DNA of 64,000 bases from an uncultured Nesterenkonia sp. (GCA_947494195.1 CANLUC010000004.1:122188-186187); one strand, 5' to 3'; counted from the first letter of the stretch, positions 7,032 through 63,553 are shown. The notes: generated by a model from the letters alone, not told the origin. A program made the numbers and translations.

Positions 7032-7967
7032 ATGGCCCTGACTCCTGACGATCTCCTGAACAAGGAATTCCCTGAGACCAAGTTCCGTCCCGGTTACGAC
7101 AAGGACGAGGTCGACGACTTCCTCGACGAGGTCGTCGTCGAATGGCGACGACTGACCCAGGAGAACGAGGATCTCACCGCCAAGGTCGCGGCCCTCGAAG
7201 AGCAGCTTGAGGAGAACCCGGCGAACCTTGAGCCGGACGAGCTCAAGGACGCGGGCCTCTCCGGATACGCCGGCACCAGCTCCACGATGACCGGCTCGAT
7301 CGACCGGATCAGCGATGAGCAGGAGCCGAAGGCCGACTCGTCCGCCACCGCGTACCCCGAGTACGAGCTGGGCACCCGTCCCGCCCAGGAGCGGCCTCAA
7401 GAGTCCGCCGGGGCAGATCACGCGGCCTCGGCCACCGGTGTGCTGGCCATGGCGCAGAAGCTGCACGACCAGTACGTCTCCGAGGGCGAGCAGACCCGCG
7501 CGGCCTACATCGCTGAGGGTGAGTCCAAGCGAGCAGAGTACCTGGCAGAAGGTGAACAGACCCGCGAGGCCTACATCGCCGAGGGCACGCAGACCCGCGA
7601 GGCCTACATCGCTGAAGGTGAGTCCACGCGCGCTGAGTACATCGCCGAGGGCGAGACCCGCCGCGATGAGCTGATCAGCGCTGCAGAGAGCACCCACGCA
7701 CAGCTGCTGGCGGAGGCCGAGCGTCGCCGGAACGAGATCGTCACCGACGCCGAGACGCGCGCCGAGAACATGATCGAAGAGGCCGAGCTCACCTCCACGC
7801 GCACGCTCAACGCGCTGGAGCGCAAGAAGGCGGACCTCGAGTCCAAGGTCGGGGAACTCACCAGCTTCGAACGCGACTACCGCGCCCGGCTCAAGGACTA
7901 CATCGAGGGCCAGCTCGCGGACCTGAACAGCCGCGGCTCCATCGAGAAGGAAGCCACCGGCGCCTGA
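7032..7967 (+). CDS. divIVA: DivIVA/Wag31 polar growth scaffold
   Basis: The N-terminal lipid-binding domain MALTPDDLLNKEFPETKFRPGYDKDEVDDFLDEV is diagnostic. The rest is coiled coil. Confidence 0.92.
   Translation: MALTPDDLLNKEFPETKFRPGYDKDEVDDFLDEVVVEWRRLTQENEDLTAKVAALEEQLEENPANLEPDELKDAGLSGYAGTSSTMTGSIDRISDEQEPKADSSATAYPEYELGTRPAQERPQESAGADHAASATGVLAMAQKLHDQYVSEGEQTRAAYIAEGESKRAEYLAEGEQTREAYIAEGTQTREAYIAEGESTRAEYIAEGETRRDELISAAESTHAQLLAEAERRRNEIVTDAETRAENMIEEAELTSTRTLNALERKKADLESKVGELTSFERDYRARLKDYIEGQLADLNSRGSIEKEATGA
7482..7679 (+). repeat. Six in-frame tandem 33-bp (11-aa) repeats inside divIVA
   Basis: EGEQTRAAYIA / EGESKRAEYLA / EGEQTREAYIA / EGTQTREAYIA / EGESTRAEYIA / EGETRRDELIS, read directly from the translation. 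Confidence 0.9.
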
Positions 7968-22174: not shown

Positions 22175-22248
22175 GCGGATGTAGCTCAGCTGGCTAGAGC
22201 ATCACCTTGCCATGGTGAGGGTCGCGAGTTCGAATCTCGTCATCCGCT
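22175..22248 (+). tRNA. tRNA-Gly(GCC)
   Basis: Acceptor GCGGATG/CATCCGC, anticodon arm TCACC-TTGCCAT-GGTGA, T-loop GGTCGCGAGTTCGAATCTCG. Confidence 0.92.
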
Positions 22249-22366
22249 CGCAGGATTTGGGGAAACCCTTGAACGATCAGCAGGATCACTGCACGGCAGC
22301 CGGGTCTTCAACGATCGGGTCGCTGGATGTCAGTCCGGGACGGTGTAGTGTTTCGGGGATGGCTAC

Positions 22367-22437
22367 GGTGGGGTGGCCGAGTGGCGAGGCAGCGGCCTGC
22401 AAAGCCGTTAACGCGGGTTCGATTCCCGTCCCCACCT
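22367..22437 (+). tRNA. tRNA-Cys(GCA)
   Basis: Acceptor GGTGGGG/CCCCACC, anticodon loop CTGCAAA, T-arm GCGGGTTCGATTCCCGT. Confidence 0.9.
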
Positions 22438-22521
22438 CGCAGCTTCGCTTGAGACACCGGGCGGGGAGACTGAGAACAACGAGAACTGAATAAGTCTGAA
22501 TGGATGAGACAGTCCATACGG

Positions 22522-22593
22522 GCGCGATTAGCGCAGCGGTAGCGCGCTTCCCTGACACGGAAGAGGTCACTGGTTCGATCCCAGTATCGCGCA
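22522..22593 (+). tRNA. tRNA-Val(GAC)
   Basis: Acceptor GCGCGAT/ATCGCGC, anticodon arm CTTCC-CTGACAC-GGAAG, T-arm ACTGGTTCGATCCCAGT. Confidence 0.9.
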
Positions 22594-22646
22594 CTGAGTA
22601 CAGGAGATTCCGCCGCCGAGAAGGTGGCGGGGCATCCTGAACTCAT

Positions 22647-22720
22647 GCGGATGTAGCTCAGCTGGCTAGAGCATCACCTTGCCATGGTGAGGGTCGCGAG
22701 TTCGAATCTCGTCATCCGCT
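22647..22720 (+). tRNA. tRNA-Gly(GCC), second identical copy
   Basis: Identical 74 nt to 22175-22248. Confidence 0.92.
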
Positions 22721-22731
22721 CAGAACACAGG

Positions 22732-22887: not shown

Positions 22888-23033
22888 AATTCGTGCTCCG
22901 GGATCGGTGAAAATCCGAACCGGCGGTCAAAGTCCGCGACCCGAGTCAGGTGCAGCCCGGCTGCTCCGGTCTTGGTTGAACCGGTGGAACTCCGGTACCG
23001 ACAGTCACAGTCTGGATGGGAGAAGCACGAGAG
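22888..23033 (+). promoter_or_regulatory. FMN riboswitch (RFN element) controlling the rib operon
   Basis: P1 TCGTGCT (22891-22897) / AGCACGA (23024-23030). Conserved cores GGATCGGTGAAAATCCGAACCGGCGGT..AGTCCGCGACCC and GGTGGAACTCCGGTACCGACAGT.ACAGTCTGGATGGGAGAAG. Confidence 0.9.
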
Positions 23034-44617: not shown

Positions 44618-44701
44618 GCCCGAATGGCGGAATCGGTAGACGCGCCGCACTCAAAATGCGGTACCACTGGTGTGTGGGTTCGAGTCCCACTTCGGGCACC
44701 A
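44618..44701 (+). tRNA. tRNA-Leu(CAA), CCA encoded
   Basis: Acceptor GCCCGAA/TTCGGGC, anticodon loop CTCAAAA, long variable arm, T-arm GTGGGTTCGAGTCCCAC, then ACCA. Confidence 0.92.
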
Positions 44702-44729
44702 CGATCGACAAGGGACCAGAAGGAGAACG

Positions 44730-45470
44730 GTGAGCGAACAGACTCAGTCCGGCGGCGCTGGTGCCCCCGAGGAAGCACCCGCAGCAGCAACCCCGGCGTC
44801 GGCAGCCCCGGCACCCCAGCCGACCCCGGCCACAGCGTCCCAGCCGGCGCCACTCGCCGCGTCCCAGGAGACGCCTCAGGAGCAGGCCCCTGAGGGACAG
44901 ACGCCGCGCCGCGTGCTGGTCGCCGAGGACGAGACGCTGATCAGGCTGGACATCGTAGAGATCCTCGCCGGAGCCGGCTACGAGGTCGTCGGCGAGGCAG
45001 ACAACGGCGAACGAGCCGTGGAGCTCGCCCGAGAGACCGAGCCCGATCTGGTCGTGATGGACGTCAAGATGCCCATCATGGACGGCATCTCTGCCGCGAA
45101 GATCATCGCCGAGGAGCGGATCGCGCCCGTCGTGATGCTGACCGCCTTCTCGCAGCGCGACCTCGTCGAATCTGCGCGCGAGGCGGGCGCGATGGCGTAC
45201 GTGGTCAAACCCTTCACCGAGAATGACCTGATCCCGGCCGTGGAAGTCGCCATGGCGCGCTTCGATGAGATCCGGGCCCTGGAGGACGAGGTCACCTCGC
45301 TCGCCGACAAGTTCGAGACGCGCAAGCTCGTGGAGCGCGCCAAGTCGCTGCTCACCACGAAGATGGGCCTCTCCGAGCCGGAGGCCTTCCGCTGGATCCA
45401 GAAGACCTCGATGGACCGCCGACTCTCCATGCGAGAGGTCGCCGAGACGGTCGTCGACCAGATGGGCTGA
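44730..45470 (+). CDS. pdtaR: ANTAR-domain response regulator (PdtaR-like) with a Pro/Ala/Gln-rich N-terminal extension
   Basis: GTG 44730 lies 5 nt after SD AAGGAG. REC domain RVLVAEDE..DLVVMDVKMP. ANTAR domain KLVERAKSLLTTKMGLSEPEAFRWIQKTSMDRRLSMREVAE. Confidence 0.85.
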   Translation: MSEQTQSGGAGAPEEAPAAATPASAAPAPQPTPATASQPAPLAASQETPQEQAPEGQTPRRVLVAEDETLIRLDIVEILAGAGYEVVGEADNGERAVELARETEPDLVVMDVKMPIMDGISAAKIIAEERIAPVVMLTAFSQRDLVESAREAGAMAYVVKPFTENDLIPAVEVAMARFDEIRALEDEVTSLADKFETRKLVERAKSLLTTKMGLSEPEAFRWIQKTSMDRRLSMREVAETVVDQMG

Positions 45471-45485
45471 CTACCTCCGTTTCCC

Positions 45486-45570
45486 GTTGAGGGGCGGATT
45501 CTCCGACTAGTTGAAGCTGTTTTCGGCCTCAGATGCTCCGAGAATCCGTCCCTCAGTGCGTGGGAGGGGG
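45486..45570. repeat. Palindromic intergenic element, copy 1 (degenerate right arm)
   Basis: Left arm GTTGAGGGGCGGATTCTCCG 45486-45505, 32-nt spacer, right arm CCGAGAATCCGTCCCTCAGT 45538-45557, G-rich tail GCGTGGGAGGGGG to 45570. Confidence 0.85.
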
Positions 45571-45571
45571 T

Positions 45572-45892
45572 TCACATCTCGAAATAGAACTGGTGGTGGG
45601 CCGCGCAGCCCGGGTTGAACGGCGCCGCACAGGACCTGCATTGCTCGGCCACGAGGTATTCGTCGATGCTGAACCGCCGGCGGCAGACCCCGCAGAGCAG
45701 AGCGAGCTCGGTCCGGCGCCCCAGCGGCCAGCGTCTGATCGGATGCGCCTCGGTCTCCTGATGGCACTTGAGGCAGGGATACCAGCGGTCACAGCAGAAG
45801 AACCTGATCGCGACGACGTCCAGCGGTCCGGCGTAGTGCCGACAGCGGGTCTGGTCGTCCACTGCTGGGCCGCGGATCTGAGCTTCCTCCAT
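45572..45892 (-). CDS. CHY-type zinc-finger protein
   Basis: RCRHY..FFCCDRWYPCLKCHQE..H..LCGVC..CRSCAAPFNPGCAAHHQFYF is the zf-CHY Cys/His pattern. Start taken at MEEAQIRG (45892); an upstream in-frame ATG at 45958 is possible. Confidence 0.8.
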   Translation of the reverse strand: MEEAQIRGPAVDDQTRCRHYAGPLDVVAIRFFCCDRWYPCLKCHQETEAHPIRRWPLGRRTELALLCGVCRRRFSIDEYLVAEQCRSCAAPFNPGCAAHHQFYFEM

Positions 45893-45966
45893 GATCCCGA
45901 GGCTATCCGACCCCTGCCGCGCCCCTCGCGCTGAGCCCACCCCTCGGGCCGAGCTCACCCCTCCCC

Positions 45967-46067
45967 GTTGAGCGGCGGATTTTCCGAGTATTTGATGCGT
46001 TTTTGGCCCTAGATGCTCGGAGAATCCGCCGCTCAGCGCAGGTGGGGCCGCCGCTCAGCGCAGGTGG
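45967..46067. repeat. Palindromic intergenic element, copy 2 (right end tandemly duplicated)
   Basis: Left arm GTTGAGCGGCGGATTTTCCG 45967-45986, 31-nt spacer, right arm CGGAGAATCCGCCGCTCAGC 46018-46037. CCGCCGCTCAGCGCAGGTGG occurs twice (46026-46045 and 46048-46067). Confidence 0.85.
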
Positions 46068-46186
46068 AATTACCCGCTCTGCGCAGGGGAATCACCGCAT
46101 CCCTGCACCCCAGTGGAATTCTGCATGGTGAGACGAGCAGCGGTGCGGGTGCGCTGGGACACCTTCTCAGGCATAGAATTCAGAAC

Positions 46187-60407: not shown

Positions 60408-60423
60408 CCATCATCAGTGACGA

Positions 60424-60463
60424 AGAAGCGCCCGGTCTCGGAAGAGGCCGGGCGCTTCTTTTC
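60424..60463. terminator. Terminator hairpin shared by the tRNA operon (+) and the LAxTG gene (-)
   Basis: Stem AGAAGCGCCCGG (60424-60435) / CCGGGCGCTTCT (60448-60459). TTTTCT follows on the plus strand; the other side is pyrimidine-rich. Confidence 0.7.
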
Positions 60464-60466
60464 TGC

Positions 60467-60550
60467 GTTGAGGGGCGGATTCTCCGTGCATCTCATAGGC
60501 TTTTCGGCCCCAAGTGCCCGGAGAATCCGCCCCTCAAAGTGGGTGGGGTG
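60467..60550. repeat. Palindromic intergenic element, copy 3 (best preserved)
   Basis: TTGAGGGGCGGATTCTCCG (60468-60486) is perfectly complementary to CGGAGAATCCGCCCCTCAA (60519-60537). 32-nt spacer. Tail GTGGGTGGGGTG ends at 60550. Confidence 0.9.
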
Positions 60551-60551
60551 A

Positions 60552-62675
60552 CTAGACCTGACGACGACGGCGCGCCGGCCACGCCGCTGCAAGGCCCAGC
60601 AGCACGAGCAACAGACTGCCGAGCGCGGTCCACCCGGCGCTGAAGCCGGTCTTGGCGAGCTCCGTGGAGTGTGCCGCGGACGCACCTTCCGGATCGGAGT
60701 GCTGAGTGTGCGTGCTAGCCTCGGTGCCTGACTCAGTGTTGTGAGCTTTGTCACTGCCTGCTGCGGCGTCGCTCGTCTCGAGAACCGCGTCCGTCACCTC
60801 ACGGCCGGAGACAACTTCGCTGTCATCGGAGGCGGGAGCAACGCTGCTGCTGGTGGCTGAGGAATTCCCGCTGGAGTCGTCACCGTAGGAGCTGTCTCCA
60901 GCGGAGTCGCCACCGCCGGAGGCCTTTTGGTCGACGTCCCCAGGGTTGGGTGATTCATTCGAGTCGGTGGTGTCGGGCTGACCCTCGTCTGCCTCCGCGT
61001 CGGGCGCTTCGTCGCCTGCGGGTGCGTCCTCCTCGTTGGAAGCGCCCTCGCCATCGGATGTCTCGTGGTCGACGTCCCCAGGGTTGGGTGATTCATTCGA
61101 GTCGGTGGGATCGGGCTGACCCTCGTCTGCCTCGGCGTCGGACACTCCATCGCCTGCCGGGCCCCCGTCGTCTCCATCGGGAGTCTCCTCACTGTTGGAG
61201 GGCTCGTCGTCGATGTCTTGCTCATCATCTGAGTTGCCAGAGCCTGTCTGACCGTGAGCTCCCGGCTCTGCATGCTCGTCCTGATCGTAGTGGTAGATCC
61301 ACTCCATCTTCAGGAGGTCATTCGGGAACTTGTAGCCGTACAGAGGATTCGCATCGACTGTCAGAGGCTCATCTTTAGGGATTGCAACTTCGCCGGACTC
61401 GTACCCGTAGTCAACTCCATCGATATCAGGAATCGAGATGGTATTTCCATCGCGAGTCGGCTCCTCGGGCGTGACAACGACGAAATCTTCATCTTCGTCA
61501 TCCTCGTCGACACCAGCGATGTACTCGAATGACCACTCAGTCTTTGTACCCTCAGGAAGCGTATATCCTTCCTTTGCGGAGACGGTGACCGTCAGAGTCT
61601 CCCCTTCGGGAATGTCTACAACGTCTTCAAATCCATTGAACGATGACGTCGCGTTCTCATTCCAGGTGAACTCAAGTCCTGGATCTCGGAAGACCAGGAC
61701 CTCATTCGGGTTACGCAGTGAGCGTTCGGGCTCGTAGAAGTCCACCTCGATGTCATTCGGCGCGTCTTCAGATTGATCGTCTGCTATATTCCCATAGGAA
61801 AAATTGAGTAATAGCTCACCATCATTGTAGCCGTCCCAAATTTGCCAACCGCCATTATCACTCAAGAAAAGTGGAACGACAATCTCTTCTGTATCGCCGA
61901 CGTTTACGTGGTGAACTCCTGTGTACTCAATTTTGTCTGTCTCCAGATCAAACTGATAGTCATCGATATATGACAAGTCATCCTGGCCGAAAGATCGGAT
62001 AATGAATGACTCGTATTCTGAGTTATTGCCATTTCGAATAGTCACTGTCGCGGTCATGTTGACATAATCAACATTCGAAACGCCAGACCCAAAACCAACG
62101 ATCTCGTCATTCGAGCCATCCTTCTCCGTTGCTTCTTGTTTGGGTGTTGGCTTGGGTTCTGCGGGCAGAACCTCTTCTTCAAGTTCTGACTCAGGGTCTT
62201 CCTCCGAAGCGGTCTCCAGCTCAGCAATCTCATCCGATACATCGGGCGTCTCTTGCTCGGCCGGCGCTTCAGTCTCGGCAGGTACCGATTCGTCAACCAC
62301 ATCTTCGGTGAGGCTGGGTTCAAGTTCGGACGCAGAATCTGGATTCTTTGGCTCTGCCTCAACGACCTCGGGCGCCGCATCGACCTCAGCTTCGTCAGCC
62401 CTGTGTTCAGGATTCTCGCTCTCGACAACGAGCGGTTCGCTCTCAGTCGCGATGTCCTCTGAGCCGGTCGCGACATGCTCGGCGGGACTGTTCTTCTCAG
62501 TGCCCTCACCATCGGGCTCATCGATCTCGGAGGTTGGGTCTGTGTCGAGTGCCTTGGTCTCTACGACGTCGCTGCTTTCGGTGGCTTGTTCGGTGTCCGC
62601 CATGGCGGCGGCGGGCGATCCAAGCATCAAGGCGCCGGCAGCGGCCAGCGTGAGGGGGGTGCGAGCAATTTTCAC
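60552..62675 (-). CDS. Highly acidic secreted LAxTG-anchored (sortase-substrate) surface protein
   Basis: Signal peptide MKIARTPLTLAAAGALMLGSPAAAMA. C-terminal LAKTG + hydrophobic segment + RRRRQ. Asp/Glu-rich flanks around a beta-rich core. GTG start with GAAGGAA SD. Confidence 0.85.
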   Translation of the reverse strand: MKIARTPLTLAAAGALMLGSPAAAMADTEQATESSDVVETKALDTDPTSEIDEPDGEGTEKNSPAEHVATGSEDIATESEPLVVESENPEHRADEAEVDAAPEVVEAEPKNPDSASELEPSLTEDVVDESVPAETEAPAEQETPDVSDEIAELETASEEDPESELEEEVLPAEPKPTPKQEATEKDGSNDEIVGFGSGVSNVDYVNMTATVTIRNGNNSEYESFIIRSFGQDDLSYIDDYQFDLETDKIEYTGVHHVNVGDTEEIVVPLFLSDNGGWQIWDGYNDGELLLNFSYGNIADDQSEDAPNDIEVDFYEPERSLRNPNEVLVFRDPGLEFTWNENATSSFNGFEDVVDIPEGETLTVTVSAKEGYTLPEGTKTEWSFEYIAGVDEDDEDEDFVVVTPEEPTRDGNTISIPDIDGVDYGYESGEVAIPKDEPLTVDANPLYGYKFPNDLLKMEWIYHYDQDEHAEPGAHGQTGSGNSDDEQDIDDEPSNSEETPDGDDGGPAGDGVSDAEADEGQPDPTDSNESPNPGDVDHETSDGEGASNEEDAPAGDEAPDAEADEGQPDTTDSNESPNPGDVDQKASGGGDSAGDSSYGDDSSGNSSATSSSVAPASDDSEVVSGREVTDAVLETSDAAAGSDKAHNTESGTEASTHTQHSDPEGASAAHSTELAKTGFSAGWTALGSLLLVLLGLAAAWPARRRRQV
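60931..61154 (-). repeat. Two in-frame 138-bp (46-aa) tandem repeats in the LAxTG protein stalk
   Basis: TCGACGTCCCCAGGGTTGGGTGATTCATTCGAGTCGGTGG..GGGCTGACCCTCGTCTGCCTC occurs at 60931 and again at 61069. It encodes DAEADEGQPD(P/T)TDSNESPNPGDVD twice. Confidence 0.9.
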
Positions 62676-62885: not shown

Positions 62886-62921
62886 CAAAAAGTGCCCGGC
62901 CCCATAAGAGACCGGGCACTT
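62886..62921 (-). terminator. Rho-independent terminator for the DUF421 gene (minus strand)
   Basis: Stem AAGTGCCCGG / CCGGGCACTT. The plus-strand CAAAAA at 62886-62891 reads as a U-tract after the hairpin on the minus strand. Confidence 0.7.
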
Positions 62922-62932
62922 CTTCGTTCTGC

Positions 62933-63019
62933 GTTGAGGGGCGGATTCTTGGTGCATCTCATGAGCTTCTAGGCCCAAAGTGCTCGGAGAATCCGCCCCT
63001 CAACGTGGGTGGGGTGGGG
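62933..63019. repeat. Palindromic intergenic element, copy 4
   Basis: Left arm GTTGAGGGGCGGATTCTTGG 62933-62952, 32-nt spacer, right arm CGGAGAATCCGCCCCTCAAC 62985-63004, tail GTGGGTGGGGTGGGG to 63019. Confidence 0.9.
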
Positions 63020-63553
63020 TTAGTTCTGTTCGGGGCGGCCCGTGAAGGGCAGGACCGAGGAGCCGTCGCCGAGTCCTTCGCCGCCGATGACGACGAGGCC
63101 GCCGTTCTGTTCGAGGATCACGGCGGAGACGCCTTCCAGGGATCCATGTGCGGAGTTGCGCGCAGCGGTGTGGACGTCGTCCTCCACCAACTGGTGCTTG
63201 CGCAGCGCCTTCCGCTGGAACTTGCCCTGGTAGTAGATCAGCACCGGCGGGGCATCCAGCACGCGTCGCATCTTGGGGGAGCGGCCCCGCACGAATGCCA
63301 TGAGCCACTGCAGCAGCACGATGAGCGCGAGGGCGAACACCGCCTGGCTCAGCGGCACGTCCACTGCGGTGATCGTACGTCCGAACGCAGAACCGATGGT
63401 GACTGCCACGATGAAGTCCAAAGGCGTCATGTTCGCCATGGTCCGCGGACCGGAGATTCGCAGGATGAGGATGAGGGCTATATAGCCGGCCGTCAGAGTG
63501 ATGGCCGTGTGAAGAATCGGGTCCCACCCGGCCCAATATTGAGTGATGTCCAT
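63020..63553 (-). CDS. DUF421 (YetF-like) membrane protein
   Basis: Three N-terminal TM helices with the RISGPRTMANMTPLDFIVAVTIGS motif typical of DUF421, plus a soluble C-terminal domain. Confidence 0.8.
   Translation of the reverse strand: MDITQYWAGWDPILHTAITLTAGYIALILILRISGPRTMANMTPLDFIVAVTIGSAFGRTITAVDVPLSQAVFALALIVLLQWLMAFVRGRSPKMRRVLDAPPVLIYYQGKFQRKALRKHQLVEDDVHTAARNSAHGSLEGVSAVILEQNGGLVVIGGEGLGDGSSVLPFTGRPEQN

Follow-up and report, generated by a model that had tools for sequence, protein, structure and literature searches.

Four copies of one palindrome lie in the stretch of DNA analysed here (the window, 64 kb long, with positions counted from its start), and none occurs elsewhere in these 64 kb. 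They form two pairs, each of which brackets one gene (Table 1): copies 1 and 2 enclose a zf-CHY gene, and copies 3 and 4 enclose a gene for a surface protein of the LPXTG type. Copy 1 fills the entire gap between the convergent pdtaR-like gene (stop codon at 45468-45470) and the zf-CHY gene (stop codon at 45572-45574). Copy 2 is located in the divergent zf-CHY/ilvD promoter region and is the sole window copy that does not adjoin the 3' end of a gene. Copy 3 is found between the terminator of tRNA-Glu and the minus-strand LPXTG-type gene, two bases past the stop codon of the latter (60552-60554), and copy 4 is directly adjoined by yetF/DUF421, a minus-strand gene whose stop codon occupies 63020-63022. 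Given this placement of copies 1, 3, and 4, the transcript of the adjacent gene would consist, at its end, of a stop codon, a C-rich tract, and a long hairpin.

Table 1. Palindrome copies of the window with the terminators and genes next to them
Feature	Position	Strand	Parts and setting
ANTAR response regulator (PdtaR-like) gene	44670..45470	+	stop 14 nt ahead of copy 1
Copy 1	45471..45571	no strand	C-rich flank 45471-45484, palindrome 45485-45558, G-rich tail 45559-45570
zf-CHY gene	45572..45958	-	between copies 1 and 2
Copy 2 block	45956..46093	no strand	palindrome 45966-46038, GAGCGGCGG/CCGCCGCTC subtype
tRNA-Glu terminator	60422..60462	+	canonical hairpin and T-run, directly 5' of copy 3
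Copy 3	60466..60550	no strand	palindrome 60466-60539, G-rich tail 60540-60550
LPXTG-type (LAKTG) acidic surface protein gene	60552..62675	-	between copies 3 and 4
Diverged duplicate of the tRNA-Glu terminator hairpin	62887..62927	no strand	A-run, hairpin, T-run; directly 5' of copy 4
Copy 4	62932..63019	no strand	palindrome 62932-63005, G-rich tail 63006-63019
yetF/DUF421 gene	63020..63553	-	stop abuts copy 4

Genes were called with a simple GC3-based caller and, for the window, checked against Pfam. Their identities come from a Pfam scan of 19 window open reading frames (ORFs), and the remainder was judged to be housekeeping by gene order and context. No transposase domain was present in the scanned ORFs, in agreement with the preliminary description of this DNA, which had noted no transposase in the window. 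The annotated zf-CHY product of relatives has 106 aa, which would place the start near 45892; a contig search with the 128-aa zf-CHY ORF gave no match, probably since the called start differs. The LPXTG-type product is an acidic surface protein of 707 aa that has a signal peptide and, at its C terminus, a LAKTG sortase motif, and its gene contains an internal 106-nt direct repeat (60917-61022 and 61055-61160). Elsewhere in the window we noted an FMN riboswitch (22889-23032, plus strand, 96.6 bits) upstream of a ribD-like gene, a tRNA Gly-Cys-Val-Gly cluster (22175-22721) just ahead of this riboswitch, and, inside a DivIVA-like gene, a 33-nt coding tandem repeat (7473-7687, plus strand) in four overlapping 83-nt copies.

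The copies had been placed at 45486-45570, 45967-46067, 60467-60550, and 62933-63019, and all four are present. The 17-mer arm GGAGAATCCGCCCCTCA, allowed up to three mismatches, is matched nine times in the window (the eight arms and one stray), whereas 0.41 matches are expected from shuffles and none of 100 shuffles gave nine. Repeat finding in the window also picks up the family, and a profile built from 43 copies of other genomes returned exactly these four copies when run on the 64 kb. The layout of arm, spacer, and inverted arm that had been proposed stands as far as the arms are concerned (those of copy 3 are indeed perfectly complementary over 19 bp), whereas the supposed spacer of 31-32 nt folds as an imperfect continuation of the stem, closed at its apex by a G+C hairpin of 4-6 bp. 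All four copies are thus single palindromes of ~74 nt. Folded on the plus strand with their flanks, copies 1 to 4 reach energies of -47.9, -70.9, -53.7, and -52.9 kcal/mol, respectively (z = -4.2 to -8.2). A G-rich 3' tail and the absence of a U-tract were both reported correctly, as was the statement that the element is neither a tRNA nor a riboswitch; in copies 1 and 2, a C-rich 5' flank additionally mirrors the tail. The polarity said to be common to all copies agrees with a T-rich apical loop that has one reading direction in all four. It is nonetheless weakly defined, because both strands score almost equally in the profile (63.5 and 63.3 bits for copy 1; 65.0 and 63.5 bits for copy 2).

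The family extends beyond the window. A scan with a two-arm pattern over one genome per species (185,579 species) returned 71 loci, of which 36 belong to six Nesterenkonia species (Act20, N. aurantiaca, N. sandarakina, LB17, E16_10, and CF4.4) and 10 to two Microbacterium genomes. The remaining pattern matches (Paenibacillus, Acidobacteria, Planctomycetota, and others) were KdpA coding sequence or unrelated palindromes with a common 11-mer and were not counted. By the strict two-arm pattern, each Nesterenkonia genome has 2 to ~12 copies and the Microbacterium MAG has 11, and a profile search of the fetched loci added ~16% more, diverged copies, bringing the total to 51. The Microbacterium sister form consists of GGTTTGGGGCGGATTCTCG, an inner hairpin (TTYGGGGCGG...CCGCCCCRAA), and then CGAGAATCCGCCCCAAACC; the GGGGCGGATTCTC core and the overall architecture are common to the forms of both genera. 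The aligned stretches of the window and Act20 are 95-98% identical, so the two are close relatives.

An exact single-arm scan of metagenomes yielded eight contigs, seven of which are Nesterenkonia-like and carry complete palindromes at sites already known. The eighth, unrelated contig (L083, 508-527) holds a solitary exact 20-mer arm without a partner. In N. salmonea, N. natronophila, and N. lacusekhoensis, the 21 kb of sequence surrounding ilvD contained no copy; because of these empty regions, and because only two Microbacterium genomes were positive, we consider the distribution patchy. Rfam gave no match on the elements at gathering thresholds, and relaxed thresholds produced generic microRNA-hairpin noise far below the cut-offs. 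Likewise, blastn of the Nesterenkonia and Microbacterium forms against plasmid and phage collections gave no match other than a marginal one of 36 nt to a Tsukamurella plasmid, and the core motif was not matched in the relevant papers of the searchable literature. The palindrome family is thus real and, as far as searchable sources show, undescribed, which bears out the earlier view of a dispersed palindromic family of no known class.

Two further sets of palindromes came up in the scan. Loci L006, L021, and L042 carry a different, GCGGAT-rich palindrome (…GACCGCGGATGACGCGGATGCGGCGGATTTTCGCGGAT…) that is nearly unchanged in MAGs of Caldilineaceae, Acidobacteria, and Blastocatellia and was picked up because it has an 11-mer in common with the search pattern. 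L029 and L062 (Humisphaera) and L031 (Acidobacteriota) contain unrelated palindromic repeats with GGCGGATTCTC in their arms, probably by chance, since half of the pattern is all that a palindrome has to match.

Throughout the family, a C-rich tract precedes the arm GTTGAGGGGCGGATTCTCCG; an inner stem follows, imperfectly paired and topped by a small G+C hairpin, and the unit is completed by the arm in inverted form and a tract rich in G. The unit is a near-perfect palindrome of ~75 bp (~100 bp with flanks) that folds as a single long hairpin (median 30 bp and -51 kcal/mol). An alignment of 53 copies shows hardly any variation in the outer 21 bp, and the mean pairwise identity over all copies is 89% in the arms versus 54% in the inner 32 nt. 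The arms form terminal inverted repeats of 20-27 bp. The inner part usually comprises a 4-6 bp G+C stem and a loop of 4-6 nt, the sequence of this apical stem depending on the site (GGGCC/GGCCC, CCCC/GGGG, or GCCG/CGGC). Of the 53 copies, 23 carry a mismatch at the same stem position (TTCT[C]CG / CG[G]AGAA; e.g., copy 4, 62950-62953), almost always by a transversion that is rarely compensated. A variant affecting both arms, GAGCGGCGG/CCGCCGCTC, occurs in several non-orthologous copies and also in Act20, in the copy orthologous to copies 3 and 4 of the window. At that site, both arms of the Act20 copy are unlike those of the window, N. aurantiaca, E16_10, and LB17 despite flanks that are 95-98% identical, and the arms thus evolve in concert.

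At the base of the hairpin, short stretches comprising the arm end and the tail are repeatedly found duplicated in tandem, both in Nesterenkonia (window copy 2, L036, L067, L002, and L074) and in Microbacterium (L015, L016, and L027). In copy 2, the palindrome is followed by partial repeats of this kind at 46027-46048 and 46049-46070 and by a degenerate third at 46071-46093. Together they make up a 22-23 nt minisatellite of the right-arm end and G-tail (AGCCCCTCAACGCAACGGGGGCC), seen at 46027-46093 in the window (two to three units) and also at 9800-9880 in L073 and 9780-9930 in L074 (up to six units).

The hairpin-forming potential of the copies is certain: 80.9% of the alignment cells pair, compared with ~40% when the partners are slid. 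Pairing-preserving double changes do occur (G:C to C:G in 5-6 copies and G:C to U:A in the L073/L074 orthologues). Formal covariation, which the preliminary description would have taken as a sign of a structured element, is nonetheless not significant (59 of 500 column shuffles scored as high, and RNAalifold assigned a covariation term of 0.07), and covariation was dropped as a proof of RNA structure. With the copies oriented by sequence, G.U and C.A cells are balanced, and the wobble pairs show no strand asymmetry.

The strongest regularity, to which the preliminary description does not refer, is placement a few nucleotides past stop codons. A predicted stop codon lies within 40 nt of the profile boundary in 37 of 49 copies (median 13.5 nt), on both sides in 11. 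The gene contexts are convergent in 20 cases, tandem in 21, and divergent in 5, versus 50, 200, and 47 in the background of the same loci; convergent gene pairs are over-represented. The sister family in Microbacterium follows the same placement pattern, with 5 of 11 copies between convergent genes. In tandem contexts, the copy hugs the stop codon of the upstream gene and leaves 85-320 nt to the next gene. In 14 of 18 such cases, folding favours the sense strand, with a mean gain of 3.0 kcal/mol, a test that is weaker than it appears because several of the 18 copies are orthologous and therefore non-independent. By eye, the inner asymmetry has no consistent orientation relative to the adjacent gene. 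Genes that end at a copy include acs, gltA, purU, hsp20, hpf, prs, mscL, glmM, rplA, pdtaR, and the tRNA-Glu cluster, many of which (tRNA-Glu, rplA, hpf, hsp20, gltA, acs, prs, and glmM) we take to be usually highly expressed.

From the placement, folding, and constraint of the copies, and by analogy with known elements, the reading we prefer, and to which we would give an even chance, is that the copies are REP/TRIT-like gene-end hairpins, that is, bidirectional terminators or protectors of RNA 3' ends that arise by local duplication. Transcribed from either side, the element would place a hairpin of ~30 bp at the end of the message, just past the stop codon. This hairpin could stop or pause RNA polymerase or, on the other hand, block 3'-to-5' exonucleases; the outcome would be a bidirectional terminator and insulator that works without a U-tract, as has been proposed for TRIT and REP. 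Since the sequence of the arms is conserved, it suggests that a protein reads them, either on the RNA stem or on DNA. New copies would stem mainly from local duplication, judging by local similarity, and such duplication could create direct-repeat pairs around single accessory genes and, in turn, gene loss by recombination between the members of a pair.

Several observations count against a role in termination, namely the missing U-tract, the insignificant covariation, and the balanced G.U and C.A cells. At the palindromes, a scan for canonical terminators detects only the neighbouring terminator of tRNA-Glu. With 2 to ~12 strict copies per genome, the family is not the general terminator of these organisms, and at copies 3 and 4 the palindrome is perhaps unneeded or insufficient, because ordinary terminators adjoin both. 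Actinobacteria have few canonical terminators, and the manner in which their transcripts end is still debated. A need for other gene-end elements would be in line with the 44-64 kb part of the window, where canonical terminators of hairpin plus T-run are not above chance (8 found, 7.3 expected). The earlier statement that the element is not a plain intrinsic terminator is accordingly right about the U-tract, whereas to dismiss a terminator role on that ground was too hasty for an actinobacterium.

We consider it unlikely that the copies are selfish, nonautonomous elements of the MITE or REPIN type, whose arms would be read by an enzyme encoded elsewhere and for which gene ends would be tolerated insertion sites. 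Such an element would be expected to look much like this one in some respects: it is dispersed in multiple copies with conserved terminal arms and a free interior, its distribution over six Nesterenkonia species and two Microbacterium genomes is patchy, and the GAGCGGCGG/CCGCCGCTC subtype of both arms is common to non-orthologous copies. The boundaries tell against mobility. No offset gives direct repeats of at least 3 nt in more than 8 of 53 copies, and the few that do occur result from the conserved CG at the stem base; target-site duplication is thus absent at any boundary offset. Nor was a plausible partner found: tblastn with E. coli RayT gave no RAYT-like ORF in the 752 kb of fetched loci (best E-value 0.09, a search in which a distant homologue could be missed), neither a cross-genus protein comparison nor a within-species comparison of paralogues revealed a recurrent neighbour gene, the genes bracketed by copies encode no transposase domain, and solitary arms flanking an ORF were not seen among the genome or metagenome matches. 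The low copy number points the same way, and copies that are close relatives of each other are neighbours rather than dispersed.

Occupancy of the sites is also kept across species. Many copies sit at orthologous sites (copy 1, for example, has orthologues in Act20 [L039], LB17 [L052], and L073/L074), where the flanks are 71-98% identical, the arms 83-100%, and the inner part 59-97%. From these identities, constraint on the arms equals or exceeds that on the flanks, which are mostly coding, whereas the inner part drifts. No insertion polymorphism was found, and the sole case of presence and absence is a deletion: Act20 is without the entire 138-nt block that holds copy 2, and its empty site was ruled out as proof of transposition because the more distant relatives L073, L074, and L075 carry copy 2 in decaying form (in L073 and L074, 3-6 units of 23 nt form an array there). 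Of the window copies, only copy 2 has no adjacent gene end, and relatives show it decaying or gone, which would suit a function linked to gene ends. The resemblance to REPIN or MITE elements suggested earlier is therefore not supported by the features that define these classes, as GTAG/CGTC tags and target-site duplications are lacking, copies are few, and sites are orthologous.

Rather improbable in our view is a site that acts at the level of DNA, at which a host protein (e.g., a topoisomerase or nucleoid protein) would bind the arms as duplex or cruciform behind strongly transcribed genes, the RNA hairpin being incidental. Gyrase, for instance, binds some BIMEs of E. coli. Because covariation is not significant, the hairpin could indeed be a by-product of a conserved DNA palindrome, and wobble pairs without strand asymmetry would fit as well. 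The sequence of the arms is conserved beyond mere pairing, even between Nesterenkonia and Microbacterium (GGGGCGGATTCTC), the single mismatch recurs at one stem position, and the sites are few per genome, many of them behind genes that are usually highly expressed. On the other hand, neither a match to a binding motif nor a candidate protein was found, the tight spacing to stop codons is easier to explain at the transcript level, and the gain in sense-strand folding in tandem contexts points to RNA. Neither this possibility nor that of a mobile element is exclusive, and both are compatible with the gene-end hairpins that we favour.

The pairs of copies deserve separate attention, as they surround genes whose presence varies between genomes. 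A single copy occupies the tRNA-Glu/yetF site in Act20 and N. aurantiaca, whereas in the window two copies enclose the LPXTG-type gene (with the adjacent terminator hairpin duplicated too) and in E16_10 two enclose a Zn-ADH gene; in LB17, the site holds one copy and, in addition, 3.9 kb of other genes. A TfoX_N gene lies between two copies at another site in N. aurantiaca, where Act20 and three metagenome contigs carry one. The LPXTG-type gene was probably acquired or differentially lost, because it is absent from the closest relative, Act20 (as well as from N. aurantiaca). Bracketed genes are lower in GC3 than their neighbours; in the LPXTG-type gene, GC3 is 0.62 versus ~0.87. The inner identity of neighbouring copies amounts to 0.75-0.88 in 4 of 10 pairs, compared with a 95th percentile of 0.72 for all other pairs, and since their inner parts are closest to each other, neighbours would be local duplicates and not imports.

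In the window itself, the duplicated unit comprises terminator, palindrome, and tail (~135 bp), because the terminator hairpin recurs 5' of copy 4, where it is readable as a terminator on either strand. Copies 3 and 4 are 90% identical (0.81 in the inner part) and the terminator hairpins roughly 75% by eye; these values are low enough that the duplicates either arose before Act20 split off or came in by recombination. From pdtaR to ilvD (L073-L078), gene content is highly variable in Nesterenkonia as well: in N. lacusekhoensis, 16 nt separate the two genes, whereas the gap holds LysR and EamA genes in N. salmonea and zf-CHY alone in the window and Act20. In L073 and L074, zf-CHY is accompanied there by an 8-kb block of thiolase, CoA-transferase, and SCFA-transporter genes.

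One could read these states as the work of a recombination or gene-capture site, a cassette-like exchange point at which accessory genes are inserted at a resident palindrome together with its duplication and are lost again by recombination between the copies. One-copy and two-copy states at both sites, flanking copies of local type, bracketed genes of low GC3, and the recurrent short duplications of the arm end in both genera would all suit it; we nevertheless hold it to be very unlikely and a minority reading, because deletion between direct repeats yields the one-copy states without special machinery, whole-gene indels must end in the intergenic DNA that these elements fill, the window duplicates are so diverged as to be old or imported, no integrase or recombinase was seen, and a duplicated unit that includes the neighbouring terminator is a poor fit to a palindrome-specific mechanism. 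More improbable still is that the palindrome itself serves as the point of capture or exchange, with entry by breakage of the hairpin or cruciform and end-joining or by a recombinase that reads the arms; if true, it would represent a dispersed, integrase-less analogue of integron cassettes in these actinobacteria.

As gene-end hairpins, the copies would provide a second genus-restricted, sequence-conserved gene-end palindrome, outside Mycobacterium and with a core common to two Micrococcales families, and hence an independent system for testing termination, protection of RNA ends, or reading by a protein. The pairs around single accessory genes offer concrete loci at which effects of palindromes on gene gain and loss can be followed. 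For annotation, the family accounts for four otherwise unannotated intergenic blocks of the window. The conservation of the arms across two families, the mismatch hot spot, the arm-end duplications, and the polymorphism between one copy and a gene plus two copies merit notice, although none is categorically new.

Several known systems invite comparison. Canonical intrinsic terminators share the hairpin, but the palindromes have a 3' flank that is G-rich on both strands instead of a U-tract. The attC sites of integrons resemble the copies in length, in being imperfect palindromes whose center varies between conserved outer parts, and in their location at the 3' end of single accessory genes, and attC cassettes likewise show one-copy and gene-plus-two-copies states at the same site. 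An attC identity was rejected, as the ends read GTTGAGG...CCTCAAC, in the opposite order to RYYYAAC...GTTRRRY of attC. Unlike attC arrays beside intI/attI, moreover, the copies are scattered in core regions, many of them behind housekeeping genes, and no integrase is seen. Correia/CREE elements of Neisseria and ERIC are short, noncoding, intergenic sequences with inverted terminal arms that occur at the boundaries of variable gene content, and they can form RNA hairpins that affect transcripts. The Nesterenkonia palindromes differ in that they have neither a parent IS nor insertion polymorphism and, at ~75 bp, are palindromic over nearly their full length. With MITEs they share terminal inverted repeats, without the target-site duplications and derived filled sites.

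REP, BIME, and REPIN sequences, known mainly from Proteobacteria, are extragenic palindromes that lie mostly downstream of genes, a REPIN forming one long hairpin with conserved arms; the roles proposed for them are termination, mRNA stabilization, and protein binding (PMC3733652, PMC3116915). Actinobacteria are not among the phyla reported for REP/RAYT (PMC3733652). A REP is an imperfect palindrome of 20-40 bp with a conserved unpaired GTAG or CGTC tag, and a REPIN consists of two REPs in inverted order, whereas the Nesterenkonia arms are not REP hairpins: the arm GTTGAGGGGCGGATTCTCCG holds just a 4-bp mini-palindrome (CGGA-TTC-TCCG), the base of the hairpin (CGTTGAGG/CCTCAACG) is paired, and GTAG is absent. 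In a genome, REP and REPIN copies also run from tens into the hundreds, which exceeds the numbers seen here by one to two orders of magnitude. Such systems include a single-copy RAYT gene (an IS200/IS605-type Y1 transposase) with family members on its flanks, whereas the 752 kb sampled here gave no RAYT match better than the E-value of 0.09. REPIN/RAYT, MITE, attC, and the canonical terminator each part from the palindromes in at least one tested defining feature.

The "Tuberculosis Rho-independent terminator" (TRIT), described with RNIE by Gardner et al. in 2011, comes nearest. It occurs in 147 copies in M. tuberculosis and is a sequence-conserved, mostly bidirectional palindrome that is tightly set at stop codons and was reported as restricted to Mycobacterium; its authors inferred a factor that reads the conserved stem (PMC3152330). 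In Term-seq of M. tuberculosis, mapped 3' ends overlap the terminators of each predictor, including TRITs, by 2-4% (bioRxiv 10.1101/2022.06.01.494293), which makes the terminator role of TRIT itself doubtful. The sequences are unrelated (the pattern scan matched no Mycobacterium genome), the copies are far fewer in Nesterenkonia, and TRIT starts ~8 nt ahead of the stop codon, whereas the Nesterenkonia palindromes start past it, behind a C-rich tract. What the two have in common is a palindromic hairpin conserved in both sequence and structure, multiple copies, bidirectionality, a position near stop codons, and no obligatory U-tract. We regard TRIT as the closest described analogue, the resemblance being one of kind only, and the family as belonging to a familiar kind of element, the REP/TRIT-like palindromes of gene ends.
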